The notes: a model not told the origin generated them from the letters alone. Positions 1,852-23,753 are shown, numbered from the stretch's first letter. The stretch: DNA of 64,000 nt from a virus (IMGVR_UViG_3300025137_005002:1-64000); one strand, 5' to 3'. Program-made: numbers and translations.

Positions 1852-2027
1852 TGGATAAAGATTTAGAAAAAGAATTAGAGATTATAAATTTAAAACTTAA
1901 AAATATCGAAACAAATCAAAAATTGTTGTTAGAGAAACTCGGTAAGCATATTGATTTTATTGATGAAACTTATGAAGGTTTGAGGAATCCTATACAAACG
2001 GCTAAAAGGTTTTTAGGTAGAAAGTAA
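1851..2027 (+). CDS. Small coiled-coil hypothetical protein (58 aa, not in ORF track)
   Basis: MDKDLEKELEIINLKLKNIE...; TAATG overlaps at both ends. Confidence 0.55.
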   Translation: MDKDLEKELEIINLKLKNIETNQKLLLEKLGKHIDFIDETYEGLRNPIQTAKRFLGRK

Positions 2028-2497
2028 TGAAACTAATTGCACATAGAGGAAATACAACAGGACCAAATACTGAAAGAGAAAACAATCCTGAGTACTTGAT
2101 TCATGCAGTTGATAAAGGATACGACTGCGAAGTTGATGTGTGGGTAGTAAATACAATTAACAATATTCAAGAAGTTTGGCTAGGGCATGATGAGCCAACA
2201 TATCAAGTAACAAAACAATTTATAAGCAATCCGGCTTTTTGGAATCATGCAAAAAATTTAGAAGCATTACATTTTATGGTAGATAACAATATACATTGTT
2301 TCTGGCACGAAGGCGATGAACGAACATTAACAAGTAAAGGATACATTTGGACATATCCTTATAAACAAGTGACGAACAAAAGTGTAATTTGTTTGCAAAA
2401 AGAGGATGACACTGTCCCTAAGAACTGTTATGGTGTATGCTCGGACTGGGTTAGCAATTATGAAAATTCGTTTTTATCAAAACCTAAATGGAGTTAG
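2027..2497 (+). CDS. Short glycerophosphodiester phosphodiesterase / PLC-like protein
   Basis: IAHRG...EN...GYDCEVDVW...LGHD motifs of the GDPD fold. Confidence 0.7.
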   Translation: MKLIAHRGNTTGPNTERENNPEYLIHAVDKGYDCEVDVWVVNTINNIQEVWLGHDEPTYQVTKQFISNPAFWNHAKNLEALHFMVDNNIHCFWHEGDERTLTSKGYIWTYPYKQVTNKSVICLQKEDDTVPKNCYGVCSDWVSNYENSFLSKPKWS

Positions 2498-2709: not shown

Positions 2710-3447
2710 ATGAAAATAGCAATTTGTTTAAGCGGACAATTAAGACAAAGTTGGCGTAAGTGTTTACCAACTTGGAATAAAATATTTAGTGAACACGAAG
2801 TACATTACTTTGGACATACATGGACAACAAGAAGTGCTCCTAACTTTGTTAAAGTAACAAAAGGTATTGATGACATTGAAACTATTGATAGGAATGAGAT
2901 ACAAGAACTTCGTAGAGAACTTAATGGTATGGAATTAATTGTACAAGAACAAATACAATTTAAGGCTGGACTTAATCAAGCACTACATGATGTAAACTAT
3001 CAAAGTCAGTTCTATGGTGTAATGGTTGCTTCACACTTAAAGAAGAAATACGAAATAGAAAACAATAGTAACTTTGACCTAGTTGTTAGATTACGTTGGG
3101 ACACTATGTTTGACGAAGATTGGCAAGTGCCTGAACCTAAAAAAGATACGTTACAAGTTATACATTTAGGATTTGAAGAAGGCAATCATAGAAGTAGATG
3201 TGGAGATTTATATTGGCAAGGACCTACAGATGTATATGATATTGCTTGTGATTTTTACAGTCATTTTCATAGACATCCTATAGAGTTTTTTGAAATGCCA
3301 GAGAAGTTACACTACGGACCAGAACACGTTTTTATGTATTATTTAAAAGAATGTAATTTAAATTTAGAACAAATATTTCCACCAATTAAATTAGTAAGAC
3401 CAAAAGCAGAACATATGACAGGAGGAGGTGATTATGAAACTCTCTAA
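2710..3447 (+). CDS. Putative glycosyltransferase-like protein (KIAICxSGxxR family)
   Basis: MKIAICLSGQLR...HTW...FDLVVRLRWD; tandem paralog of next gene. Confidence 0.5.
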   Translation: MKIAICLSGQLRQSWRKCLPTWNKIFSEHEVHYFGHTWTTRSAPNFVKVTKGIDDIETIDRNEIQELRRELNGMELIVQEQIQFKAGLNQALHDVNYQSQFYGVMVASHLKKKYEIENNSNFDLVVRLRWDTMFDEDWQVPEPKKDTLQVIHLGFEEGNHRSRCGDLYWQGPTDVYDIACDFYSHFHRHPIEFFEMPEKLHYGPEHVFMYYLKECNLNLEQIFPPIKLVRPKAEHMTGGGDYETL

Positions 3448-4186
3448 TAATATTGCAATATGTTTTAGTGGAGAACTTAGAACTTTCAAAGTTGCTATGC
3501 CACGTTTAATGGATTACTTTAGAGACACACCTGCAGACATTTATTGTCATACATGGACAACATCAGGTGATAAGTTACATAAACTAAATGACTATAAACT
3601 ATTAGAAGACATTATTGATAATAGTGTTCATCATTTAGTTAAATTAGATTATCAAACATCTATTAATCATTCAGGCCCATTTGGTAATATGCTTTACAGT
3701 ATACAAAAAGCAAACTTTATGAAACGTGAATTTGAAGTAAAGAACAATTTTAGATATGACAAAGTTATTAAATGTAGATATGATATGTTAACACCTGATG
3801 GAAAAACATTTGGTATTAGAGATATAGAAGACAGAACAATTTACTATAGTATTGGTAATAGAGGATTAGTGCCTAATGACTTTGGTAAGCACGGATTAAG
3901 TGATATTATATTTTGGGGAGATAGTCCTAGTATGGATATTGCTTGTGATACATATCGTTATTATAATTGGGAAACTTATCCATTAGCACTAAAACTGCAA
4001 GGCGGTTATACTACAGATCCAGGAGATAGTATGTTAAGTCCTGGAACATTAATATACCAACAAGCACAAAAAAGAAATATTAAAATGACGCAAATTGTTC
4101 CACAGTTAATGGAAACACTTTGGAGAACTAGTGTAGAAGATTTAGATCCAAGCACACAATTTAACGACATAAAGGCGGCGTATTAA
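3434..4186 (+). CDS. Putative glycosyltransferase-like protein (IAICxSGxxR family)
   Basis: IAICFSGELR...HTW...YDKVIKCRYD; strong GGAGGAGG RBS. Confidence 0.5.
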   Translation: MKLSNNIAICFSGELRTFKVAMPRLMDYFRDTPADIYCHTWTTSGDKLHKLNDYKLLEDIIDNSVHHLVKLDYQTSINHSGPFGNMLYSIQKANFMKREFEVKNNFRYDKVIKCRYDMLTPDGKTFGIRDIEDRTIYYSIGNRGLVPNDFGKHGLSDIIFWGDSPSMDIACDTYRYYNWETYPLALKLQGGYTTDPGDSMLSPGTLIYQQAQKRNIKMTQIVPQLMETLWRTSVEDLDPSTQFNDIKAAY

Positions 4187-5058
4187 TGCACTTAATGGTA
4201 ACAGGAGATAGTTGGACTTTCGGAAGTGAGATTAAAGATCCTGCTTTACCGGATACAGTAAGTGATTGGGATCCAGAGAATAACGAATATCGTATTCCTA
4301 AAATATGGCCCACGATGTTGAAAGATATGATTAAGGCAGATGACCTTACTAACATATCTTATCCAGCCGCAAGTAATGATAGAATTGTAAGAACAACATT
4401 AAGTTGGATTACTGAAAACTATATTAAGCCTGGTATAGACTGTGAGAACAATTTGTTTGTCATAGTTGGCTTAACAAGTCCTGAACGTAAGGACTTTTAC
4501 TATAAGGATCCTGTAGACGAACGCAACGGCGCTGGCTGGACTACTATATGGCCCAATCAAACTAACCATCCGTATATGCAAAGAGGTATGCAACCCTTCT
4601 TTGATAACTACAGAATGTACTTATGGAATAAAGAAGAGTATGTTAATCGATATGTACAACAAGTAATTACATTAGAAAATTTCTTTAAAGTGCATAAGAT
4701 TAACTACTTGTTCTTTCAAGCATTTTATAATGTAGATGAAACACAAATATCACAGTGGCAAGATAAAAACTATGTTAACAGTGAAACAGAAAAGATGACT
4801 GTAGGTAATGCTGACCCGCGTTGGAACTTTCATTACAATGGACAAAACGACGGATGGCTATGGGATCAAGTAGACAGTAAAAGATTTTATGGTAAAGAAC
4901 AAGCACCACATAGTTTCCATAGTTACATTACTAATCAAGACAAAACAGAACATAACACAGAAGTTATTACAGGTATGCACCCAAACAAATATGGACATAT
5001 GTTATGGGCAAGAGAACTAAACAAATTTATTAGAGAAAATAAACTATGCGAAATTTAA
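4186..5058 (+). CDS. SGNH/GDSL-like hydrolase/acyltransferase 1
   Basis: GDSWT block I, ASNDRI block II, C-terminal HPNKYGH. Confidence 0.65.
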   Translation: MHLMVTGDSWTFGSEIKDPALPDTVSDWDPENNEYRIPKIWPTMLKDMIKADDLTNISYPAASNDRIVRTTLSWITENYIKPGIDCENNLFVIVGLTSPERKDFYYKDPVDERNGAGWTTIWPNQTNHPYMQRGMQPFFDNYRMYLWNKEEYVNRYVQQVITLENFFKVHKINYLFFQAFYNVDETQISQWQDKNYVNSETEKMTVGNADPRWNFHYNGQNDGWLWDQVDSKRFYGKEQAPHSFHSYITNQDKTEHNTEVITGMHPNKYGHMLWARELNKFIRENKLCEI

Positions 5059-5834: not shown

Positions 5835-6583
5835 TATATAAAGCAGATTATCCACAACTAGTAGAACCATCAGTTGCCGCGTCAACTTTAAAATGGCATG
5901 GCAGTGATAAAGAAGAATTTTACAAAAAGAATAGTAAGTTCTTTTCTAACTGGCGTTGGAAAGATATAAACATTGAATACAAGTTTAACTGGTTAGGATA
6001 TCGTACAAAGGAAATACCAGAACTGGACAAAGACTTTTTACTAACATTTGGTTGTAGTTTTACAGAAGGAATTGGAATACCTAATTTTATGACATGGCCC
6101 AATAAACTTGCAGGCTTATTAAACTTAGATGTTTATAATGCAGGTAAAGGTGGATCTGGTTTAGACATTTGTTATTACAATGCATTACTTTGGAAACAAA
6201 ATAAATTACCTTTACCAAAACAAGTTGTAATACAATTACCCGAGCCAGAAAGAAAAAGTTGGGGAACATATGTTAACAATGATATTAGTTTAGATGTTAG
6301 CAATGGCAAAGAAGATGATTGGTGGAAACATTATATAACTTCCGATGGCGAAATGCATATGAATAATATTGCGTGGTATCTAGGGTTTAATAATGTATGG
6401 CAATCGCTAGGCGTACCTGTTTTAAATATTACATGGTCACCTTATAAACATTTAGAAAATTTAGAATTTAAATTGCATTACGCAAACGTAAAAAACGATT
6501 CAACTTTACTAGCAAGAGATAATATGCATAGTGGTCCAGAGTGGCATATAAATATTGCTAATAGATGTAAGGAACTATTATGA
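5822..6583 (+). CDS. SGNH/GDSL-like protein 3
   Basis: NWLGYR, FGCSFTEG, NAGKGGSG, ARDNMHSG (DxxH). Confidence 0.65.
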   Translation: MASLVYKADYPQLVEPSVAASTLKWHGSDKEEFYKKNSKFFSNWRWKDINIEYKFNWLGYRTKEIPELDKDFLLTFGCSFTEGIGIPNFMTWPNKLAGLLNLDVYNAGKGGSGLDICYYNALLWKQNKLPLPKQVVIQLPEPERKSWGTYVNNDISLDVSNGKEDDWWKHYITSDGEMHMNNIAWYLGFNNVWQSLGVPVLNITWSPYKHLENLEFKLHYANVKNDSTLLARDNMHSGPEWHINIANRCKELL

Positions 6584-7317
6584 TAAAAACTTTGTATGCT
6601 AATGGAGATAGTTGGACATTCGGACAAGAACTTCGAGATGGCACCACTGACGATTTAGATTATAAATTTTATAACTCATGGCCCTGGCACGTTGCTCAAG
6701 GTTTGAATATACCTCAAGTAGTTAATGAAGGATTAGGTGGCGGAAGTAACGATAGAATATTTCGTAAAACTATAGACTACATTAGAAATTACAAAGGTAA
6801 ACCAAGTGAACTACAAGTAATAGTTGCTTGGACAACATATGAAAGAATTGAGATGCCTGTTGGTGTTAAGAGAAAACACGACAATGGCTACACAGAATGG
6901 GAAGAAGTTAACAATGAGTATATTAGTATACTGTTAAACAACCCACATTTAAATTTAACAAATGATGAAGACTTAGATAGATTACTGCCAGAATATCATA
7001 AGATTCGTACTATGCTGAACAGTAGTAAGGTAAATAGTTATAAGTTCTTTAACTTACAATGGTTGTTAAAACAAGTATGTGATAACTTAAACGTTAACTT
7101 ATTACAGATATATGCGTTAGACAATCCCGAATTTGTAGTAGGTAGACCCGAAGCAAATCAAGAATGGCTGGATGCAATATCCCCATACCCAGTTAGTTTA
7201 ACTAGACAACTAATGGAATACGAACACCTTAAACCCGTAAGGGCTCCCGGAAGACACCCTAATGAATTAGGACACAAAGAATTAGCAAAAACTATTGTTG
7301 CTCACTTGCAACAGTAA
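6580..7317 (+). CDS. SGNH/GDSL-like protein 4
   Basis: YANGDSWTFG, GGSNDRI, HPNELGH. Confidence 0.65.
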   Translation: MIKTLYANGDSWTFGQELRDGTTDDLDYKFYNSWPWHVAQGLNIPQVVNEGLGGGSNDRIFRKTIDYIRNYKGKPSELQVIVAWTTYERIEMPVGVKRKHDNGYTEWEEVNNEYISILLNNPHLNLTNDEDLDRLLPEYHKIRTMLNSSKVNSYKFFNLQWLLKQVCDNLNVNLLQIYALDNPEFVVGRPEANQEWLDAISPYPVSLTRQLMEYEHLKPVRAPGRHPNELGHKELAKTIVAHLQQ

Positions 7318-7466: not shown

Positions 7467-8192
7467 ATGAATATTATAATCGGAATGGCAGGAGCCGGCA
7501 GTAGATTTACAGAAGCCGGATACAACACAGTACCTAAACCTTTAGTAAGGGTTGGAGGCACAACAATGATTCAATCAGCAGTAGAGAGTTTGGACATTGA
7601 TGGAAAATATACCTTTGTTGTACGACAAGATCATATGACCGATTATCCTTGGCTCGAGCATCATTTAAAAAGTTTCGCAGACACTGTTAACATTGTTACA
7701 CTTGACCATGTTACAGAAGGAGCCGCTTGTAGTTTATTACAAGCAAAAGAATTTATAAACAACGACGAACCATTGATTAGTATCAATAGTGACCAAGTGT
7801 TACATTGGGATAGTTCAATGTTCTTAGAAAAATGCAAACTCGAGCCCCACGTGAGTTGGGTAATGACCTACCCGCATAATCATAACAAACATAGTTTTGT
7901 TAAGGTTAACGACGAAGGGCAAATAACACAAGCGGCAGAGAAAGTTATGATTAGTAACAAGGCTACTGTTGGCTTATATCATTGGAGTAAAGGAAGTTTG
8001 TTTGTTGAAGGTGCAGAACAAATGATTGCAAATAACGATAGACATAATAACGAATTCTATCTAGCACCAATTTATAATTATACAATTAAAAATAATATTG
8101 TTAAACCATATGAAGTACACGCAAGAAATTTTAGCCCTGTTGGTACTCCAGAAGATTTATCTAACTATCACAACAAGTGGTGGCGTGGATGA
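7467..8192 (+). CDS. Sugar-phosphate nucleotidyltransferase (NTP_transferase family)
   Basis: MAGAGSRF...PKPL, TEGAAC, NSDQ, AEK, NNEFY, GTPEDL. Confidence 0.85.
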   Translation: MNIIIGMAGAGSRFTEAGYNTVPKPLVRVGGTTMIQSAVESLDIDGKYTFVVRQDHMTDYPWLEHHLKSFADTVNIVTLDHVTEGAACSLLQAKEFINNDEPLISINSDQVLHWDSSMFLEKCKLEPHVSWVMTYPHNHNKHSFVKVNDEGQITQAAEKVMISNKATVGLYHWSKGSLFVEGAEQMIANNDRHNNEFYLAPIYNYTIKNNIVKPYEVHARNFSPVGTPEDLSNYHNKWWRG

Positions 8193-8884
8193 TTAAATGC
8201 TTGTATGCAAACGGTGACAGTTGGACTGAAGGAGATGAATTAGGTTTACCTTACAGTGACAATACACCAACATACAGACTTAGAAACAGTTGGCCCAAAC
8301 TACTTGCAGATAAGTTGACTATACCTGCGGTTGTAAACGAAGCAATTAGAGGAAGTAGTGGAAGTAGAATAGCAAGGCGTACAATACGTTTCATGCGTGA
8401 GTGGTGCAATAAACGACATGGTGCAGAGTTACTTGTTGTTGTTTGTTGGACTACATTTGAACGTGATGAGTTGCCAGTGGATTGGAACGGAGCAAAGTAT
8501 ATTCCTTACCACAATGTATGTTATAATATTCCTGGACATATACCAGGAGACGATAAAAAGAATTTAGACCCTATGTTAGTTGAAACAATTAATAAGATGC
8601 ATAAACCTTATACAACAACACTAGGAACAGAAAGTAGAAAACAAATGCAGTTTGAACGTATGTGGAACCTACAACAGATTGCAAAAAGTTTAAACGTAAA
8701 ATTAATTCAAACGTTTGCACTTGATCAACCAGACAGTGAATGGCTTAAAGATGTTAATTATATTACACCAAGTTTTATTGACATGACAAAGAGTCAAGGC
8801 TGGGCTTGTGGAGAAGGCGGACACACATTAGAAGAAGGGCACAAAGGATGGGCAAACTATCTGTATCAAACGATAAGTGGCTAG
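8189..8884 (+). CDS. SGNH/GDSL-like protein 5
   Basis: YANGDSWTEG, GSSGSRI, GHTLEEGH; paralog of 6580..7317. Confidence 0.65.
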   Translation: MIKCLYANGDSWTEGDELGLPYSDNTPTYRLRNSWPKLLADKLTIPAVVNEAIRGSSGSRIARRTIRFMREWCNKRHGAELLVVVCWTTFERDELPVDWNGAKYIPYHNVCYNIPGHIPGDDKKNLDPMLVETINKMHKPYTTTLGTESRKQMQFERMWNLQQIAKSLNVKLIQTFALDQPDSEWLKDVNYITPSFIDMTKSQGWACGEGGHTLEEGHKGWANYLYQTISG

Positions 8885-9132
8885 GCTGGGATCACCCTAT
8901 TGCCGTTGTTGCCGTTAATGGACGAAGTATTCTGCAGAGAACACTTGAAGTAGGAAACTACGAAACAGTAATCTTAGATAAAGAATTAATTCAGTTCTAT
9001 CCAGAGTTAATTGAAATGTGTAAAGTTTATGTTAACGATGTTAAGTTTATGGATGTACATGATCCGGATATGCTTGTTGTTAACACAGAAAAAGAATTAT
9101 ATGAATATAACATTGTAGAGGAACACAAATAA
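8848..9132 (+). CDS. Hypothetical protein
   Basis: ORF coupled to the next gene; start uncertain. Confidence 0.45.
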   Translation: MGKLSVSNDKWLGWDHPIAVVAVNGRSILQRTLEVGNYETVILDKELIQFYPELIEMCKVYVNDVKFMDVHDPDMLVVNTEKELYEYNIVEEHK

Positions 9133-9686
9133 TGATTGCATTAATTATTGCATTACCTGAAGAAGCAGAAGGTATAGACTTTAACAGAACTTACATAAGT
9201 GGAGTTGGAAAAGTTAATTCAATGATTGCTACATTTAAAGCAATTCGAGATGGAGCAACAGGAATACTTAATTATGGATCAGCAGGTTTAGTTAGTAAAA
9301 AAGATTTACACAATCAACTAATACAACCTGATATACTAATACAACGTGATATGTTTACAGAGCCACAAGCACCTAGAGGCGTTACTCCATTTGAAGAAGG
9401 AGATTATGCAGGTGCTATTGACTTAGGTACAGGTACAAACGTTACACTAGGATCCGGAGATAGTTTTGTACAAGAACCTGATCCGTGGTTTGAATATGCT
9501 AGTGTAGATATAGTAGACATGGAAGCCTACGGTATTGCCAAAACTTGTAGGAAGGTTGGCAATGTAACTTTCAAATGTTTTAAATGGGTAAGTGACTTTG
9601 CAGATGAAAATGCAATGGAACATTGGCGTAAGAATTTAGCAAACGGAAATAGTGCAATGAACGAAATAATGAAAGGCTATAAGTGA
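9132..9686 (+). CDS. mtnN: MTA/SAH (5'-deoxyadenosine) nucleosidase-like, PNP_UDP_1 family
   Basis: ALPEE, SGVGKVNS, NYGSAG, SGDSF, VDMEAYGIA, KWVSDFAD. Confidence 0.8.
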   Translation: MIALIIALPEEAEGIDFNRTYISGVGKVNSMIATFKAIRDGATGILNYGSAGLVSKKDLHNQLIQPDILIQRDMFTEPQAPRGVTPFEEGDYAGAIDLGTGTNVTLGSGDSFVQEPDPWFEYASVDIVDMEAYGIAKTCRKVGNVTFKCFKWVSDFADENAMEHWRKNLANGNSAMNEIMKGYK

Positions 9687-10012
9687 AAAAATATAAACTA
9701 GATGATATGAAAGGTGGTTGGTTTGTAGGAAACTTTGAGCCTACAGCCTTTAAGGCAAACTTTGAAGTTGGTATCCACCGACATAAGAAAGGTGAATTCC
9801 ATCAGGATCACTTTCATAAAAAAGGTACAGAGATTAACTGTATGAGAAAAGGCAAAGTAAAAATAAACGGAGAAGTGTTTAGTGAAGGAGATATTTTCAT
9901 ATTATATCCTTACGAAGTTAGTCAAGTTGAATACTTAACCGATGTAGAATTAACAGTGGTTAGAGATATTTGTGACACAGATGACAAATATATGTTTGAC
10001 ATTAAACAATAA
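9683..10012 (+). CDS. Cupin-fold protein
   Basis: GWFVGNFEP; HFH...E cupin motif 1; GDIFIL.P motif 2. Confidence 0.7.
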   Translation: MKKYKLDDMKGGWFVGNFEPTAFKANFEVGIHRHKKGEFHQDHFHKKGTEINCMRKGKVKINGEVFSEGDIFILYPYEVSQVEYLTDVELTVVRDICDTDDKYMFDIKQ

Positions 10013-10030
10013 AGAAGGTACAATACAATT

Positions 10031-11167
10031 ATGCTTGATATATACGTGGATGGAGTAGACGCAAAAGAATACTTCACAGTAACATATAAACTAGAAGGTA
10101 ACGACTTACAACGTGCGGCATTTGGGTTAGCAGTTGGACAAAGTGTGGGTAACCCTAGTGTAAGAAATGAATATGAAACACCAGAACTAATTAGTCAGTA
10201 TGCGGCAAAGATAATTGGTAAGCCTGAAGACTTCGCCGGCAAGAGTACAGGCATTGTAAAGATTGCTTGGCCTTATAGAATTATTGATTGGGAAACAGAT
10301 GGTATTGCTCAATTGATGTGTGTACTAATGGGTGGACAAATGGACATCGATTATATTCATAGATGTGAGTTATTAGATTTAGATATTGACTTTGAATTAT
10401 GTGATGCAGTTAAACCACGTTACGGATTATCAGGGTTTAGAAAACTAGTAGGTAATTACAATAAGCCGTTACTAGGATCTATAGTTAAACCTAAAACAGG
10501 ACTAACAGAGAAAGCATTAATAGAAATTATTACTGCTTTTGTTGAAGGCGGAGTTGACTTTATTAAAGAAGATGAGATAATGGCAAACCCGGCTTGTTTA
10601 CCCCTTAAGACTCGCATAGACGTCGTACAAAGGGCCTTGAAAGGTACAGACGTTGTGTACTGCTATTGTATTAATAGTGATCCATTACATCTACTAGAAA
10701 GAGCTAAAATGGTTGTCGACGGAGGTGGTAATGGAGTTCACGTTAACTTCTGGAGTGGACATGGAGCATACAAGAGTATTAACAAATTAAACTTACCTTT
10801 ATTTGTACATTATCAAAAATCAGGCGATAAAGTATTAAGTAGTGAGAAACACGCATACCGTATTAGTTGGTATGTACTTTGCAAGTTAGCAAGTATCTGT
10901 GGAGTGGACACAATCCATACAGGTATGTGGGGTGGATATTTAAGTGATGATGAAAACGAACTAAGAAGAACAATGCATATGTTGAGTAACAACAATGTTG
11001 TTCCTGCTTTAAGTTGCGGTATGACAGCAGAACTTATACCAGAAATAACAAGACGCTTTGGGGTTGACTATATGGCAAACGTTGGTGGAGCAATACACGA
11101 ACACCCAGATGGTATGAAAGCCGGAGCATTAAAATTAAGAAAAGCAATAGATAGTGTAACACAATGA
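10031..11167 (+). CDS. RuBisCO-like protein (RLP, probably not a carboxylase)
   Basis: IVKPKTGL, GGVDFIKEDE (carbamyl-Lys motif), GGAIHEHPDG..AGA; HxHR replaced by HYQK and loop-6 Lys replaced (GMWGGY). Confidence 0.88.
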   Translation: MLDIYVDGVDAKEYFTVTYKLEGNDLQRAAFGLAVGQSVGNPSVRNEYETPELISQYAAKIIGKPEDFAGKSTGIVKIAWPYRIIDWETDGIAQLMCVLMGGQMDIDYIHRCELLDLDIDFELCDAVKPRYGLSGFRKLVGNYNKPLLGSIVKPKTGLTEKALIEIITAFVEGGVDFIKEDEIMANPACLPLKTRIDVVQRALKGTDVVYCYCINSDPLHLLERAKMVVDGGGNGVHVNFWSGHGAYKSINKLNLPLFVHYQKSGDKVLSSEKHAYRISWYVLCKLASICGVDTIHTGMWGGYLSDDENELRRTMHMLSNNNVVPALSCGMTAELIPEITRRFGVDYMANVGGAIHEHPDGMKAGALKLRKAIDSVTQ

Positions 11168-11328
11168 TAGATAAAAATAAAACAAAAGATTATACAAAAC
11201 CTGAACCTGCTGAACTACAACGAAAACTTGATGAAAAGATGAAAAAGTTTTTAGAGAAAGGCGGCAAAATTGAGAAACTTGAACCAATGAAACCTACGAA
11301 AGAACAATTAAAAAGTTGGACAGTGTAG
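11164..11328 (+). CDS. SutA-like small protein (54 aa, not in ORF track)
   Basis: ...LDEKMKKFLEKGGKIEKLEP...; FLxxGGKI motif; overlaps neighbours at both ends. Confidence 0.5.
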   Translation: MIDKNKTKDYTKPEPAELQRKLDEKMKKFLEKGGKIEKLEPMKPTKEQLKSWTV

Positions 11329-11855
11329 TGATAAACTATAAGCAACATATTATAAATGTACCAGACTATCCAGTTAAAGGAATACAATTCAAAGACCTTA
11401 CTCCGTTATGGAGTGATACAGAAATACTTTTTCAATTAATTAAAGATATGGCTAAACCTTGGGAACGACGAGGCATTAGAAAAGTTGTTGCTATAGAGTC
11501 TAGAGGATTTATTATAGGTAGTGCATTAGCAATACAATTAGGTTGTGGATTTGTTCCCATAAGAAAACCTGGTAAGTTACCTAGAGATACTTTCAGTGAA
11601 GCATATGATTTAGAGTATGGATCAACAGAGATACATATCCATAAAGATGCACTTACAGATGAGAATGTTTTAATAGTAGACGACTTACTAGCAACAGGTG
11701 GAACTGCTTTAGCGGCTTATGTTTTATTACAAAAGAATTTTCCAAATGTTAATGTTGCAGGATTTAGTTTTATGGCATCATTAGATTTTTTACAAGGGCA
11801 TAGTGATTTAAGTATGTTGGGATTACCAATAGAAAGTTTAGTTAGTTATTCATGA
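11328..11855 (+). CDS. apt: Adenine phosphoribosyltransferase
   Basis: PDYP..GIQFKDLTP, IESRGF, RKPGKLP, YDLEYG, IVDDLLATGGT PRPP-binding motif; GTG start at 11328 likely. Confidence 0.93.
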   Translation: MINYKQHIINVPDYPVKGIQFKDLTPLWSDTEILFQLIKDMAKPWERRGIRKVVAIESRGFIIGSALAIQLGCGFVPIRKPGKLPRDTFSEAYDLEYGSTEIHIHKDALTDENVLIVDDLLATGGTALAAYVLLQKNFPNVNVAGFSFMASLDFLQGHSDLSMLGLPIESLVSYS

Positions 11856-12550
11856 ATTATGTTTTTGATGTAGACGGTACTCTATCCGAAAGTAGACAAA
11901 CTATAGACGTAGACTTTAGACTTTGGTTCATGAAATGGATGAAAGGTAAAGATGTTTTTATTGTTACTGGAAGTGATAGACCTAAAACTATAGAACAAAT
12001 AGGACATGAGATCGTAGATAACTGTACAATGGTATTTCAATGTGCAGGCAATAGTGTATGGCGTAACGGTATAGAAGTTTCAAGTAGTAATCTTAATGCA
12101 CCATCTGATATGGATACATGGTTAGAACAAATGGTAGACTTTAGTAGGTGTCCAGAAAAAACTGGAAATCATATTGAAAAACGTACAGGGTTAATAAATT
12201 TTAGTACTGTAGGAAGAAATGCAGTAGGACAACAACGTGATGATTATTATGAATGGGATAAAATTAATAACGAACGTGTAAGCATATGTCATCAATTTAA
12301 TGAAACCTTTCTAGGCTTTGAAGCAGAGCTAGGCGGAAACACTAGTATAGATATTCATTTAAAAGGAAAGAACAAAGCACAGGTGTATGATATTATAGGA
12401 TCACCTATGGTGTTCTTTGGAGATAGAATTCATGCAAACGGAAACGATAAACCGTTAGCAGACAAAATGGTACACCCAGAAGATGAGTGGCATCAAGTAG
12501 TTGGACCACACGAGACATGGGATATCTTATTACAAAAGTATACGGACTAA
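11852..12550 (+). CDS. HAD-IIB hydrolase, eukaryote-type phosphomannomutase-like
   Basis: FDVDGTL, VTGSD..K..EQ, IEKRTGLINFSTVGR, GGNTSIDI, FFGDR...GND. Confidence 0.8.
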   Translation: MNYVFDVDGTLSESRQTIDVDFRLWFMKWMKGKDVFIVTGSDRPKTIEQIGHEIVDNCTMVFQCAGNSVWRNGIEVSSSNLNAPSDMDTWLEQMVDFSRCPEKTGNHIEKRTGLINFSTVGRNAVGQQRDDYYEWDKINNERVSICHQFNETFLGFEAELGGNTSIDIHLKGKNKAQVYDIIGSPMVFFGDRIHANGNDKPLADKMVHPEDEWHQVVGPHETWDILLQKYTD

Positions 12551-12551
12551 T

Positions 12552-13904
12552 ATGGAACCTGCTGATCCACAAGTAATGAAAAGAAAACTGAATTCAGTTG
12601 GCCCTGGATTCTGTTTAGCCAAGTGGACTCAACTTACACTTAACTTACAAAATGGAACTGCTCACAGTTGTCATCACCCACCTGTACACCAAGTGTCTAA
12701 AGATGAAATTAAATTAGATCCTAGTTCATTACACAATTCAATATTTAAAAAACAACAACGTAAAGATATGCTCGAAGGTGGCAGACCTAAAGAGTGTGAC
12801 TACTGTTGGAGAGTTGAAGATGCAGATCCAAATGCATTAAGTGACAGACATTTAAAAAGTGCATTTAGTTGGAGCAACGAACACTTTGATAAAATTAAAA
12901 ACAATGATTGGAGTACAAACTTTCAACCTACTTATGTAGAAGTAAGTTTTGGTTATGCTTGTAACTTTAAATGTATGTATTGTAGTCCTGCTATTAGTAG
13001 TGCATGGATGCAAGAAGCAAAGCAACATGGAAGTTTTCCAACCTCTGATAATTACAATGATATCAAATGGTTAGAACGTTCAGGTCGTATGCCGATACCT
13101 GAAAGAGAAGAGAATCCATATGTAGATGCATTTTGGAAATGGTGGCCCGACTTATATCCTGCGTTACATACTTTTCGTGTTACAGGCGGTGAACCATTAA
13201 TGAACAAAAATACTTTCCGTATGATGGATTGGATTATTAATACTGATACACCTAATACAAATTTATTGTTAGGTATTAATAGTAACTTTTGTGTTGACGA
13301 CAAACTGTTTAATAAGTTTATTAGTCAAGCACACAAAGTAGTAGATAGTAACAAAGTTCGCAAGTTAGAAGTTTATACAAGTGCTGAAGCAGTTGGTAAT
13401 AAAGCAGAGTATATTAGAACTGGATTAGATTACAAGAAGTTTTTTGCTAACGTAGAACGTGTACTAGAAGAATTTAAAGATAATAATAAATTTATTATTA
13501 CGTTTATGTGTACTTACAATGCATTGAGTGTAACAACATTTGGTGGCTTCTTAAAAGACCTTATTAAGTTAAGAAAAAAGTATGGCAGAGATTGTATGTA
13601 TATTGATATACCATTCTTAAGATATCCCGAAATGATGGACGTTAAAATACTTCCTGGTAGTTTCGAAGAGTATATGATTAGTACTGTAGACTACATGGAA
13701 CAGATGGAAACTGAAGGATTAGTACATAGTAGCGAAACTGCTAAACTTAAACGTATTATAGAATACTGGCGCAGTCAACGTACTGTAGACCATAGCAATC
13801 ATAGAAAAAACTTTAAAGTTTATACTAAAGAACTTGATATTCGCAGAAGCACTAACTTTAAAGAAGTTTTCCCAGAATATGCGGGTTTCTACGATGCAAT
13901 TTAA
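12552..13904 (+). CDS. Radical SAM enzyme #1, N-terminal twitch domain (type A)
   Basis: FCLAKW...SCHH...ECDYC N-terminal Fe-S domain; CNFKCMYC; TGGEP. Confidence 0.9.
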   Translation: MEPADPQVMKRKLNSVGPGFCLAKWTQLTLNLQNGTAHSCHHPPVHQVSKDEIKLDPSSLHNSIFKKQQRKDMLEGGRPKECDYCWRVEDADPNALSDRHLKSAFSWSNEHFDKIKNNDWSTNFQPTYVEVSFGYACNFKCMYCSPAISSAWMQEAKQHGSFPTSDNYNDIKWLERSGRMPIPEREENPYVDAFWKWWPDLYPALHTFRVTGGEPLMNKNTFRMMDWIINTDTPNTNLLLGINSNFCVDDKLFNKFISQAHKVVDSNKVRKLEVYTSAEAVGNKAEYIRTGLDYKKFFANVERVLEEFKDNNKFIITFMCTYNALSVTTFGGFLKDLIKLRKKYGRDCMYIDIPFLRYPEMMDVKILPGSFEEYMISTVDYMEQMETEGLVHSSETAKLKRIIEYWRSQRTVDHSNHRKNFKVYTKELDIRRSTNFKEVFPEYAGFYDAI

Positions 13905-22082: not shown

Positions 22083-22838
22083 ATGAATATAACAATAGCA
22101 GGATATGGATTTGTAGGCAGAGCAGTAGATACATTTGTTGGAACTAAACATTCAACGTTTATTGTAGACCCTGCTTATAATGAAAATACAATATCTTCAA
22201 TGAGTTGCGATGCAGTTATTATATGTGTAAGTACACCAGCAAATACAAACGGTAGTTGCGATATGACTAACGTTATTAATGTAATTAGCGATGCACCGGA
22301 TGTACCTATATTAATAAAGAGTACAATCAGTATAGAAGGCTGGCGTAAACTTAAAGAACTGTTTCCTAAAAAAGACATAGCATTCAGTCCAGAGTTTCTA
22401 AGAGCTAACACTGCCGAGTTAGATTTTGTTTCACAAGATAAAATGTATGTAAGTGAAAGCACTAATCATTTTTGGGTTGAATTCTTTAAAGGAATAAAAC
22501 CAACACTATCTATTTTTTATGGCAATGCAGAAGAATTAATTATAACAAAGTATATGCGTAATAGTTTTTTAGCAACTAAAGTAAGTTTCTTTAATCAAGT
22601 ATTTGACTTATGTGAGTCATTAGGTGTAGACTTTGAAACTGTTAGACGTTATACTACAGAAGACAGTCGTATAACAGACAGTCATAGTTATGTAACAGAC
22701 GAACGAGGATTTGCTGGACATTGTTTTCCAAAGGATACTCAGGCTATATTAAAAACTGCAAACGAAGCCGGCTATGATTTAAGTCTAGTTAGAGAAGCAG
22801 TACAGTATAATGAAAGAGTTAAGTGGACTAAGAAATGA
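22083..22838 (+). CDS. UDP-glucose 6-dehydrogenase-like protein lacking the C-terminal domain
   Basis: GYGFVG, CVSTP, IKST, SPEFLR, KYMRNSFLATKVSFFN, GFAGHCFPKD. Confidence 0.85.
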   Translation: MNITIAGYGFVGRAVDTFVGTKHSTFIVDPAYNENTISSMSCDAVIICVSTPANTNGSCDMTNVINVISDAPDVPILIKSTISIEGWRKLKELFPKKDIAFSPEFLRANTAELDFVSQDKMYVSESTNHFWVEFFKGIKPTLSIFYGNAEELIITKYMRNSFLATKVSFFNQVFDLCESLGVDFETVRRYTTEDSRITDSHSYVTDERGFAGHCFPKDTQAILKTANEAGYDLSLVREAVQYNERVKWTKK

Positions 22839-23176
22839 AATTAGATGTATTAGATATAGGCGGAGAGGTAGTTAAAGACAATGACACCTACTTACTTAAA
22901 GACAATAAGACTTTAAAAAATCTTGTTGTTAGTAGTACAGATTTAAAACCCAATAGAAGTACTACGGGCCATGCACACGTTGGACAAGAAGAAGTCTATT
23001 ACTTTGTAAGTGGCTGGGGAACAATGGAACTTATTAGCACAAACGGAAAAGTAACAAGTCACGATGTTAAACCTGGTACTGTAATTTTAATTGAAGATGG
23101 ATTCTTTCATAGAGTTCATGCAGGTAGTGACGGTTGTTATTTTGTTTGTGTGTTTGATGGAAAGAGAAATCATTAG
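22835..23176 (+). CDS. Cupin protein (mannose-6-phosphate-isomerase-like)
   Basis: GHAH..QEEVYYF..G.G and G.FHRV cupin motifs. Confidence 0.75.
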   Translation: MKLDVLDIGGEVVKDNDTYLLKDNKTLKNLVVSSTDLKPNRSTTGHAHVGQEEVYYFVSGWGTMELISTNGKVTSHDVKPGTVILIEDGFFHRVHAGSDGCYFVCVFDGKRNH

Positions 23177-23336
23177 TGAAATGGTTTGATTATTTAAGTA
23201 TTTACTGGCACACCAAAGCATTACATTTTGGAATTAAACTTTGGATGTTTGGAGTATGGTATGGATTACCTATCGTAGTAGCCAGTTGGTGGACTTGGAG
23301 AGTATATGAAGAATGTAGAAGAAAGAGTTTATTAAG

Positions 23337-23753
23337 ATGAAAGTAGGAATAACATTTAGTACATTTGATTTGTTACACGCAGGACATATTGCTATGTTGC
23401 GTGATGCAAAGGAACAGTGTGATTACTTAATTGTTGGACTACAAAGTGATCCTACTATTGATAGACCAGATACAAAGAACAAACCAATACAAACAATGTT
23501 TGAAAGATACTTACAATTAAAAGCAGTTGAGTATGTTAACGAAGTTATACCTTATCAAACAGAACAAGATTTAGAAGACATTCTACGAACGTTAAATATC
23601 AATGTAAGGATACTTGGCGAAGAGTATAGAGATAAAGACTTTACAGGTAAAGACATTTGTAGATCCAGAGATATCGAACTATACTTTAACAAACGAGATC
23701 ATAGGTTTAGTACAACTGATCTTAGAAAGAGAGTTAGAAGTGAAGGAGTATAA
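23337..23753 (+). CDS. Cytidylyltransferase (TagD/glycerol-3-phosphate type)
   Basis: TFDLLHAGH (HIGH-type), LIVGL..D, ER, FSTT. Confidence 0.85.
   Translation: MKVGITFSTFDLLHAGHIAMLRDAKEQCDYLIVGLQSDPTIDRPDTKNKPIQTMFERYLQLKAVEYVNEVIPYQTEQDLEDILRTLNINVRILGEEYRDKDFTGKDICRSRDIELYFNKRDHRFSTTDLRKRVRSEGV

Follow-up and report, generated by a model that had tools for sequence, protein, structure and literature searches.

A RuBisCO-like protein cassette and a nucleosidase–adenine phosphoribosyltransferase pair as likely separate units of one phage operon ahead of a radical SAM array

Why does a phage place a nucleosidase, a cupin, a RuBisCO-like protein (RLP), a small ORF, an adenine phosphoribosyltransferase (APRT) and a HAD enzyme in one tight run directly before an array of radical SAM enzymes? 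The preliminary description of the window (the whole 64,000-nucleotide stretch of viral DNA that was analysed) read this run as a module for the disposal of SAM by-products. We consider it likely that two functional units, an RLP sugar-activation cassette and a nucleosidase/APRT adenine salvage, instead form a mosaic here and are transcribed together as an operon. The relevant features are as follows.

2027..2497, + strand: 156-aa mini GDPD-like phosphodiesterase, the fourth conserved component of the RLP cassette (family profile, motif)
2710..4186, + strand: two tandem paralogs of a ~246-aa DUF7796-like family, predicted GT-A fold glycosyltransferases (AlphaFold, Foldseek)
7467..8192, + strand: sugar-phosphate nucleotidyltransferase (NTP-transferase; PF00483, 37.6 bits)
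8177..8884, + strand: DUF6071 paralog (PF19547, 45 bits)
8806..9132, + strand: unassigned 108-aa ORF, no Pfam or NCBIfam match
9132..9686, + strand: minimal MTAN-type nucleosidase, 184 aa (PF01048, PNP_UDP_1, 36.7 bits vs cut-off 25.1)
9683..10012, + strand: small metal-binding monocupin, 109 aa, phosphomannose-isomerase-like, core member of the cassette (HxH..E motif, fold)
10031..11167, + strand: 'Form IV-like' RLP, 378 aa (PF00016, 123.5 bits)
11164..11328, + strand: 54-aa lysine- and glutamate-rich ORF, kept in the closest relatives only
11316..11855, + strand: APRT (NF002636, 191.3 bits vs cut-off 125)
11852..12550, + strand: phosphomannomutase (PMM)-type HAD-IIB enzyme (PF03332, 75.7 bits vs cut-off 22.4)
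12501..13904, + strand: twitch-domain radical SAM enzyme that opens the array (NF033640, N_Twi_rSAM, 322.7 bits)

An ORF check of the window found all six genes of the 9132-12550 run at these positions on the + strand, separated by few-base overlaps or an 18-base gap. Contigs of three independent marine studies bridge every junction in gene order (contig X2 spans the whole stretch, X5 spans 8700-11995, and X6 spans 8700-11168 and 11149-12700), and the gene order is therefore not an assembly artefact. Contigs from a metatranscriptome library span parts of all genes, it being understood that RNA-library contigs are not proof of transcription. The gene run first described before the array is thus borne out by ORFs, domain matches and bridging contigs, as is the count of 17 radical SAM enzymes: the 76-kb record holds 17 N_Twi_rSAM matches, 16 of them within the window. 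Among the lesser genes, the 108-aa ORF has tblastn matches in five loci only, those of its closest relatives (L003-L007), and a SutA-RBD match to the 54-aa ORF lies below threshold (25.6 bits vs cut-off 29.3). The window carries three DUF6071 paralogs (4186-5058, 6580-7317 and 8177-8884), the last with a weak SGNH/GDSL-like match (Lipase_GDSL_2 at 0.0032).

The RLP has 193 viral (IMG/VR) and 50 cellular relatives, and its best PDB match is a form III enzyme (2cwx, 116.9 bits). In RuBisCO numbering, residues K175, K177, K201, D203, E204, H327, S379, G381, G403 and G404 are kept, whilst in the family alignment the positions of E60, T65, N123, H294, R295 and K334 are substituted and invariantly different. 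The metal and enolisation core is retained and the carboxylation residues are lost. The N123 position is an invariant Gly (MGGQ; G102), where MtnW has its catalytic Lys. With this Gly, and with scores of 103.7 vs a cut-off of 513.6 (TIGR03332) and 131.8 vs 409 (NF007095), the protein was rejected as MtnW; a bona fide form III RuBisCO was likewise rejected, on a rubisco_III score of 143.9 bits vs a cut-off of 497 and the replacement of six carboxylation residues. A Beckwithbacteria relative (L172) shares 49% identity with the RLP. Phage RLPs have already been published: Jaffe, Castelle, Dupont & Banfield (2018/2019, Mol Biol Evol 36:435, PMC6389311) described 'Form IV-like' RLPs of phages and Beckwithbacteria, and the available part of that paper leaves their function open and mentions no gene-neighbourhood link.

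We compared RLP neighbourhoods in 80 viral and 50 cellular loci, the latter from SAR11, Legionella, Beckwithbacteria and DPANN. The NTP-transferase, for which none of the NCBIfam ManC equivalog models gave a match, adjoins the RLP in 79 of the 80 viral and 46 of the 50 cellular loci, and is a near-obligate partner of the RLP. The cupin is present in 62 of the 80 viral loci by tblastn (57 by ORF clustering) and in 16/50 cellular loci. The mini-GDPD family, found in 60/81 viral and 23/50 cellular loci, has an invariant HR..EN..E.D..GH signature, and its profile matches the glycerophosphodiester phosphodiesterase 7e0v (9e-5) over the first 54 residues; here the gene sits ~7.5 kb upstream, displaced from the rest of the RLP cassette. 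Cupin and RLP therefore stand in a conserved set with the NTP-transferase and mini-GDPD that is common to phages and microbes. A viral variant lacking the RLP, with the order NTP-cupin-PMM-GDPD, occurs in two loci (L149 and L150).

No Pfam or NCBIfam family matched the 109-aa cupin at E<0.01. Its metal motif HxH..E (H43, H45 and E50) is invariant in the family alignment, the family profile matches PDB cupins, and the AlphaFold model (pLDDT 94.9) is all-beta. At E<=0.001 Foldseek returned 137 matches in the PDB; all of the top-listed ones are cupin-fold proteins, with monocupins first. Motif and model together indicate a true cupin with a predicted double-stranded beta-helix. Its best characterised fold matches are the Thermococcus monocupin phosphomannose isomerases (PMIs; 7zvm and 7zvy, TM 0.64-0.70). 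We rejected an assignment as ARD/MtnD, as there was no ARD match and the nearest folds were generic monocupins and these Thermococcus PMIs. The HAD enzyme carries motifs I-IV (DVDGT, TGSD, K..K and FGDR..NGND) and is kept in the radical SAM clade of the RLP phages, in 10 of the 80 loci. MtnX was rejected for this protein, whose sole matches are to PMM (PF03332), Hydrolase_3 and HAD-IIB/Cof models.

The wider surroundings are those of a glycan island. The ~246-aa paralog family was seen in 38 loci, with a DUF7796 match in 13/36 members, and the AlphaFold model (pLDDT 86.4) has GT6 glycosyltransferases as its best Foldseek matches (4ayl and 4cj8, E 6e-8). Downstream of the cassette lie nucleotide-sugar dehydrogenases, a DegT aminotransferase, a carbamoyltransferase and a cytidylyltransferase; at other loci the neighbours are frequently a GDP-mannose 4,6-dehydratase, together with sugar O-methyltransferase-like genes and GT2. 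The preliminary description had drawn an analogy of RLP, HAD and cupin to MtnW, MtnX and MtnD, which fails on all three proteins: the RLP does not pass the MtnW tests, the HAD is PMM-type and the cupin is not an ARD. Its own caveats fared better. The HAD is indeed PMM-like (PF03332, 75.7 bits), neither MtnA nor an MtnB-type aldolase was found in G000 or G001, and a place for RLP and cupin in sugar biosynthesis is the better reading, given the NTP-transferase and mini-GDPD partners and the glycan islands.

The nucleosidase comes from a minimal lineage of marine, SAR11-type proteins. Its family profile has 41 PDB matches, all of them MTA/SAH or aminofutalosine nucleosidases except an unnamed plant chain, At4g34840, and the best is 3eei (9.8e-18). 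The residues invariant in the family alignment (E11, G49/A51/G52, D110/F112, M130-E131 and D155) align with the SGDxF, (V)EMEA and VSDxAD motifs of MTANs; their counterparts in the E. coli MTAN we take to be E12, S76-G78, F151, M173-E174 and D197. The catalytic and adenine-binding set of MTANs is thus retained. The protein is ~45 residues short of canonical MTANs (184 vs ~230 aa), with losses in the stretch from strand 1 to the SGxGK motif and around the middle, and it scores below every NCBIfam nucleosidase cut-off (NF004168, 70.6 vs 129; NF005522, 62.2 vs 161; TIGR01704, 22.9 vs 73.8); for these two reasons its substrate range is a matter we infer. In any case the substrates would be SAM by-products, because the family matches only 5'-substituted-adenosine nucleosidases. 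Phage MTA/SAH nucleosidases have been published before, accompanied by radical SAM, MetK and methyltransferases (Coutinho et al. 2020, Microbiome 8:163, PMC7678222).

The APRT is a bona fide equivalog, with a second model also above its cut-off (NF002634, 176.2 bits vs 170) and both the PRPP motif VLIVDDLLATGGT and the motif RKPGKLP found. Against sister phages of 82-88% identity, nucleosidase and APRT each stand out as an indel of exactly one gene's length: window positions 9131-9678 (nucleosidase, with colinear flanks) and 11328-11854 (APRT) are missing in L003, L005 and L043. The two indels flank precisely the cupin-RLP pair. In 14 further viral loci the nucleosidase directly adjoins an APRT, with either gene first, and the adjacent pair also occurs in a complete Ca. 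Pelagibacter genome. Both genes are missing from sister G001 (306.7 kb, 87% complete), which has 16 radical SAM matches, and they are therefore accessory. It should be noted that the mosaic reading takes the flanking of cupin-RLP by both insertions as coincidence.

Radical SAM genes reach a density of 39.8 per Mb in 20 nucleosidase records vs 3.0 per Mb in 23 RLP controls, a ~13-fold enrichment (Fisher p=0.017, Mann-Whitney p=0.006, uncorrected for kinship) in counts that include fragment records and controls picked by another gene (RLP). In loci L083, L127, L131, L138-L141 and L151, relatives of the nucleosidase are found within a radical SAM array or at its edge. A radical SAM gene is missing from many nucleosidase loci, where thymidylate synthase adjoins instead; in nine viral loci it lies 0.6-6.5 kb from the nucleosidase. 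Only one radical SAM match occurs in G008, a nucleosidase phage of 210 kb that is 100% complete. As to the suggested correlation of mtnN and apt with radical SAM number, the enrichment of nucleosidase records (per Mb, uncorrected for kinship) stands beside a sister with 16 matches and neither gene.

Whether all five enzymes serve one pathway is decided chiefly by where their genes occur. None of the 80 viral RLP loci has a nucleosidase, three have an APRT and ten a PMM; among 25 further RLP records a nucleosidase occurs in just one, at a distance of ~35 kb or more from the RLP, and five nucleosidase-bearing records lack an RLP, four of these being radical SAM-rich. By these separate distributions of the RLP set and of nucleosidase/APRT, the five genes are not one co-evolved cassette. 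For the SAM by-product module, the identity of nucleosidase and APRT, their recurrence as a pair and the radical SAM enrichment stand, and the unity of the five genes does not. A single by-product pathway, in which RLP, cupin and HAD act on the released ribosyl moiety in the manner of MtnW, MtnD and MtnX, or of the RLP and cupin of R. rubrum, would account for the translational coupling of the genes in one operon directly before the array and for the two insertions exactly flanking cupin-RLP. However, it is contradicted by the low MtnW scores and the Gly of the RLP, by a HAD with no MtnX match and a cupin with PMI-type folds, and by the absence of IF-2B (MtnA), class II aldolase (MtnB/Ald2) and MetK from G000 and its 87%-complete sister G001. 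With cupin and RLP lacking a nucleosidase in ~80 viral and 50 cellular loci, this pathway is largely refuted by the gene distributions, and we regard it as very improbable. Equally improbable is a variant in which the RLP pathway turns released 5-deoxyribose or methylthioribose, after phosphorylation and isomerisation by the host, into an activated deoxy-sugar, so that the nucleosidase was recruited beside cupin-RLP. Known RLPs act on 5-substituted ribulose-1-phosphates, which together with the exact flanking speaks for such a route; nevertheless, the RLP cassette almost always occurs without a nucleosidase, the phage showed neither a kinase nor an isomerase that would act on the ribosyl moiety, and elsewhere nucleosidase and APRT adjoin each other, not the RLP. 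We reject an archaeal-type pathway in which AMP made by APRT would give rise to RuBP, the substrate for carboxylation by a form III-like RuBisCO. The form III PDB match and an APRT 150 bases downstream might suggest it, but all six carboxylation positions are replaced across the RLP family, the rubisco_III score is far below its cut-off, no IF-2B-type R15P isomerase was found in the phage, and APRT is missing from 77 of the 80 RLP loci.

A more serious alternative, though still an unlikely one, is that nucleosidase and APRT were copied from a SAR11-type housekeeping pair for general purine salvage, supplying AMP for phage replication with no specific tie to radical SAM and an incidental place in the operon. 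The adjacent pair in the Pelagibacter chromosome, the thymidylate synthase near nine viral nucleosidases, the complete phage with its single radical SAM match and the radical SAM-rich sister without the pair are all consistent with this. Against it, the family matches 5'-substituted-adenosine nucleosidases and not general purine nucleosidases, radical SAM genes are ~13 times as dense as in controls, and several nucleosidase genes are embedded in arrays.

We therefore return to the mosaic of two units. The RLP sugar-activation cassette would be old and widespread, comprising the NTP-transferase, the PMI-like cupin and the Form IV-like RLP, here with a PMM-type mutase and with the mini-GDPD farther upstream, in a glycosylation and sugar-tailoring island of putative GT-A glycosyltransferases, nucleotide-sugar dehydrogenases, a DegT aminotransferase and a carbamoyltransferase. 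From a ketose phosphate, cupin, PMM and NTP-transferase could supply an NDP-hexose; the RLP, for its part, most likely acts on a keto-sugar phosphate by enolisation or isomerisation and so gives an unusual unit that the transferase would activate. The second unit would be young and lineage-specific, two single-gene insertions of the minimal MTAN-type nucleosidase and APRT. Judged from its sequence, the nucleosidase may cleave 5'-deoxyadenosine, MTA and SAH to adenine and a ribosyl moiety, the latter being left to the host, and APRT would convert adenine and PRPP to AMP. The two enzymes probably recycle the adenine of spent SAM, and their most plausible role is to lift product inhibition from the ~17 radical SAM enzymes and from methyltransferases.

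Each unit resembles known systems in part. The company of RLP, cupin and HAD near an MTA-type nucleosidase recalls the B. subtilis MtnW/MtnX/MtnD system and the R. rubrum MTA-isoprenoid shunt (RLP plus cupin), but here the RLP is not MtnW, the HAD is of the PMM type (IIB) and the cupin is no ARD; there is no MtnA, MtnB-type aldolase or MetK, and cupin and RLP co-evolve with the NTP-transferase rather than the nucleosidase. Another parallel is the GDP-mannose route of ManA (PMI), ManB (PMM) and ManC (GMP), including the bifunctional NTP-transferase-cupin PMI/GMP, to which the NTP-transferase, small cupin and PMM-type mutase correspond; the canonical route has no place for an RLP, and the transferase here lacks a ManC equivalog match. 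Nucleosidase and APRT recall E. coli Pfs/MtnN (EC 3.2.2.9) and Apt in fold, catalytic residues and the apparent two-step logic of nucleosidase to adenine and APRT to AMP, the phage nucleosidase differing in being shorter, below equivalog cut-offs and of the minimal marine SAR11-type lineage. In contrast to the phage SAM-cycle genes of Coutinho 2020 (PMC7678222), there is no MetK here, and nucleosidase and APRT are separated by cupin-RLP. The RLP itself fits the description of the clade of Jaffe 2018 (PMC6389311) in its divergence, its occurrence on large uncultured IMG/VR phage contigs, its partly conserved active-site residues and its Beckwithbacteria relative. Unlike in the available part of that account, its partners in glycan islands are here an NTP-transferase, a cupin and a mini-GDPD, and this genome goes beyond those RLPs by the addition of PMM, nucleosidase and APRT.

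All ORFs in the preliminary description were found exactly where it placed them, on the + strand, and the run of genes leading into the radical SAM array reads as follows.

9132-9686, + strand: nucleosidase (nucleosidase fold by Pfam/NCBIfam)
9683-10012, + strand: 109-aa cupin (no Pfam match; recognized by family motif, PDB profile and AlphaFold model)
10031-11167, + strand: RuBisCO-like protein, RLP (Pfam/NCBIfam)
11164-11328, + strand: 54-aa Lys/Glu-rich ORF (sub-threshold match to the SutA RNAP-binding domain, 25.6 bits against 29.3)
11316-11855, + strand: APRT (NCBIfam, above the equivalog cut-off)
11852-12550, + strand: HAD protein of the PMM-type HAD-IIB group (Pfam/NCBIfam)
12501-13904, + strand: first twitch-domain radical SAM gene (Pfam/NCBIfam)

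Neighbouring genes are separated by 18-base gaps or overlap by a few bases, and so form a single operon. Every junction is bridged by contigs from three independent marine metagenome studies, showing that the gene order is not chimeric. In a seawater metatranscriptome library (X9), contigs span 8700-9383, 9563-11019, 11038-11613 and 11797-12700, and with them parts of all the genes; this hints at expression of the operon in nature, although DNA carry-over is possible. The 54-aa ORF between the RLP and APRT genes is kept in the closest relatives only. The window forms the first 64 kb of a 76.5-kb IMG/VR virus record; GC content is ~34%. CheckV puts the completeness of the record at 21%, which makes it part of a phage genome of roughly 300 kb. 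The twitch-domain radical SAM model (N_Twi_rSAM, NF033640) has 17 matches in the record, 16 of them within the window. Searches of 50,697 GenBank phage records with the stretch and the RLP (blastn and tblastn) returned zero matches, leaving no cultured phage reference.

The stretch is a sugar-activation operon in which a nucleosidase and an APRT have been inserted. Aligned by blastn to its nearest relatives L003 and L005, whose flanks are 82-88% identical in nucleotide sequence, and to the more remote locus L043 (69-77%), the window differs by exact gene-sized indels at 9131-9678 and 11328-11854 and is colinear elsewhere. Both genes are absent from the entire record of the sister phage G001 (306.7 kb, 87% complete), which has 16 radical SAM matches. 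In the records of two more distant loci, L010 and L026, an APRT occupies the slot that it has in the window. Shared descent of these same-slot APRTs was considered but not adopted: they are only 38% identical to that of the window, compared with 55-57% for the neighbouring RLP and PMM, so that the history of the slot may be one of gain or of loss. Among 25 other RLP-bearing records, only one had a nucleosidase, at a distance of at least ~35 kb from the RLP, whilst four of the five nucleosidase-bearing records that lack an RLP were radical SAM-rich. The nucleosidase, cupin, RLP, APRT and HAD genes had been described as one cassette, and the shared operon agrees with this, but the cupin and RLP travel without the nucleosidase, and two of the genes are indels.

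Of 193 relatives of the RLP on viral contigs, 80 fetched loci were compared by tblastn with the window proteins and by all-against-all ORF clustering. The NTP-transferase (window 7467-8192) was near the RLP in 79 of the 80 loci, the cupin in 62, and a 150-aa family (window 2027-2497), identified as a miniature glycerophosphodiester-phosphodiesterase-like protein (mini-GDPD), in 60; PMM was near it in 10, APRT in three and the nucleosidase in none. Other frequent neighbours were GDP-mannose 4,6-dehydratase, sugar O-methyltransferase-like proteins and a GT2. A ~246-aa family, present in the window as tandem paralogs (2710-3447 and 3428-4186), accompanies the cassette in 38 loci and has a predicted GT-A glycosyltransferase fold; this assignment comes from a fold search, in which the GT6 enzymes BoGT6a and GTA/GTB were the best matches, as a PDB profile search gave no match. 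DUF7796 was detected in 13 of 36 members. The same association was evident in 50 cellular RLP loci, including a complete Ca. Pelagibacter genome, three Legionella species, Nonomuraea, Azospirillum, Beckwithbacteria and Woesearchaeota, where the adjacent genes were the NTP-transferase (46 loci), mini-GDPD (23) and the cupin (16). Downstream, the window encodes two nucleotide-sugar dehydrogenases, a DegT aminotransferase, a carbamoyltransferase, another cupin and a cytidylyltransferase. Together with the neighbour distributions, these genes place the cupin and RLP in a sugar-activation cassette within a glycan or sugar-tailoring island, bearing out the caveat, attached to the original proposal, that the two might belong to sugar biosynthesis.

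Three DUF6071 paralogs (4186-5058, 6580-7317 and 8177-8884), one with a weak GDSL/SGNH match, are interspersed among the glycosyltransferase-like genes and the NTP-transferase. A second small cupin (Cupin_2) and a PF01467 cytidylyltransferase lie at 22835-23753, immediately before the main radical SAM block, and possibly represent a second activation step of the island.

The nucleosidase belongs to a family with PDB matches to MTA/SAH and aminofutalosine nucleosidases (best E 1e-17), and the family alignment retains the MTAN catalytic and adenine-binding residues. Compared with canonical enzymes, the protein falls short by ~45 residues, and its score lies under every equivalog cut-off. An identical nucleosidase is carried by 18 contigs. 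The family is present in Pelagibacter genomes, and a complete Ca. Pelagibacter sp. genome (L215:1504-2566) encodes a 177-aa minimal nucleosidase 47 bases from an APRT gene transcribed in the opposite, diverging direction; that SAR11 carries the same minimal enzyme explains the abundance of the family in marine metagenomes. In a survey of 87 viral nucleosidase loci, APRT was the immediate neighbour in 14, with either gene first, and thymidylate synthase lay 0.6-6.5 kb away in nine. A pattern scan for APRT in viral contigs found none; these APRTs were found by tblastn of the nucleosidase loci. Paralogs of the radical SAM genes in the window's array adjoin the nucleosidase at several of these loci: at L083, which has the closest relative (57% identity), it lies at the end of an array, at L127 it lies inside one, and L131, L138-L141 and L151 have such neighbours too. 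The record of L127 (G007), a 79-kb fragment of another phage, gives 18 twitch-type radical SAM matches; its nucleosidase lies within the array, and it has no RLP.

The comparison of nucleosidase presence with radical SAM copy number, as proposed in the preliminary description, gave the expected direction. Twenty nucleosidase-bearing records (1.31 Mb) contained 52 Radical_SAM matches, or 39.8 per Mb, with at least two matches in 7 of 20; 23 RLP-bearing control records from outside the window's clade (2.68 Mb) contained eight, or 3.0 per Mb, with at least two in 1 of 23 (Fisher's exact p=0.017; Mann-Whitney p=0.006; both ignore kinship among the phages). The association is an enrichment, not a rule. 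MetK, an IF-2B-type isomerase (MtnA or R15P isomerase) and a class II aldolase (MtnB or Ald2) were all absent from the window's record and from G001, which limits the phage to the adenine half of the by-product. As a pair, the nucleosidase and APRT are sensibly regarded as a fairly ordinary add-on for SAM by-products and adenine salvage, statistically tied to radical SAM-rich phages, which tend to bring their own nucleosidase, predicted to clear 5'-dA and SAH, and sometimes an APRT. The idea of a SAM by-product disposal module serving 17 radical SAM enzymes probably holds for these two genes, but not for the RLP, HAD and cupin.

For the latter three, a role like that of MtnW/MtnX/MtnD had been suggested, and is rejected in view of an RLP far below the MtnW model cut-off, a HAD with PMM motifs and the lack of MtnA and MtnB. 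The RLP also scores far under the form III and OiaX cut-offs. Aligned to the form III RuBisCO 2cwx and across its family, it retains K175, K177, the carbamylation/metal triad (here K-E-D-E), H327, S379, G381 and G403/G404, whilst E60, T65, N123 (Gly), H294-R295 (Q-K) and K334 (Y) are replaced and invariantly different in the family. Judged by these residues and scores, the protein is not MtnW and would be unable to carboxylate; it is presumably able to bind a metal and enolise a phosphorylated keto-sugar. The residues, together with the absence of an R15P isomerase, rule out the archaeal AMP-RuBisCO pathway. The 109-aa protein is a genuine cupin: an HxH..E motif is invariant in its family, the family profile matches PDB cupins, though no named family in an NCBIfam scan, and the AlphaFold model of the protein (pLDDT 94.9) matches monocupins, the best functionally characterized being Thermococcus monocupin phosphomannose isomerases (TM 0.64-0.70). 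A variant viral cassette (L150:14472-16480, also L149) has the order NTP-transferase, cupin, PMM, mini-GDPD, with the RLP absent from the whole 40-kb record and a nucleosidase 6.5 kb upstream. Here, PMM may substitute for the RLP in supplying the NTP-transferase substrate.

It is conceivable, but very improbable, that the nucleosidase and APRT came to flank the cupin and RLP because ribosyl waste from radical SAM chemistry serves the RLP cassette as a substrate. In that case the host would phosphorylate and isomerise 5-deoxyribose or methylthioribose, which would then become the precursor of a nucleotide-activated deoxy-sugar. If true, what the ~17 radical SAM enzymes of the phage discard would supply it with a building block for that same glycan or secondary-metabolite pathway. 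Returning to the sugar-activation cassette, we consider the chances evenly balanced that the Form IV-like RLP makes some new activated sugar unit, a role that, to our knowledge, has never been shown for a RuBisCO fold.

Separating the two units averts mis-annotation of the stretch as a phage methionine-salvage or MtnW pathway. Coutinho et al. 2020 (PMC7678222) described SAM-cycle auxiliary genes in a phage, namely those for an MTA/SAH nucleosidase, MetK, methyltransferases and radical SAM proteins, and the tie between nucleosidase/APRT and radical SAM is a modest extension of these. The RLP cassette is the more interesting element. Jaffe et al. 2018 (PMC6389311) reported 'Form IV-like' RLPs of unclear function, ~80 of them from putative phage contigs, and also from Beckwithbacteria. 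The GOS paper noted novel RuBisCO-homolog clades, and the present clade may correspond to the 'IV-GOS' RLPs; we found no literature on an RLP linked to a nucleotidyltransferase. With its NTP-transferase, cupin and mini-GDPD, the cassette is very widespread in phages, SAR11, Legionella, CPR bacteria and DPANN archaea, and its chemistry, once solved, would show what a large orphan branch of the RuBisCO superfamily does in biosynthesis. The compact operon of RLP, PMI-like cupin and PMM narrows the candidate substrates to ketose or aldose phosphates. The cupin, PMM and NTP-transferase resemble the PMI-PMM-pyrophosphorylase route to NDP-hexose, and we infer that the RLP contributes to a route of this kind.
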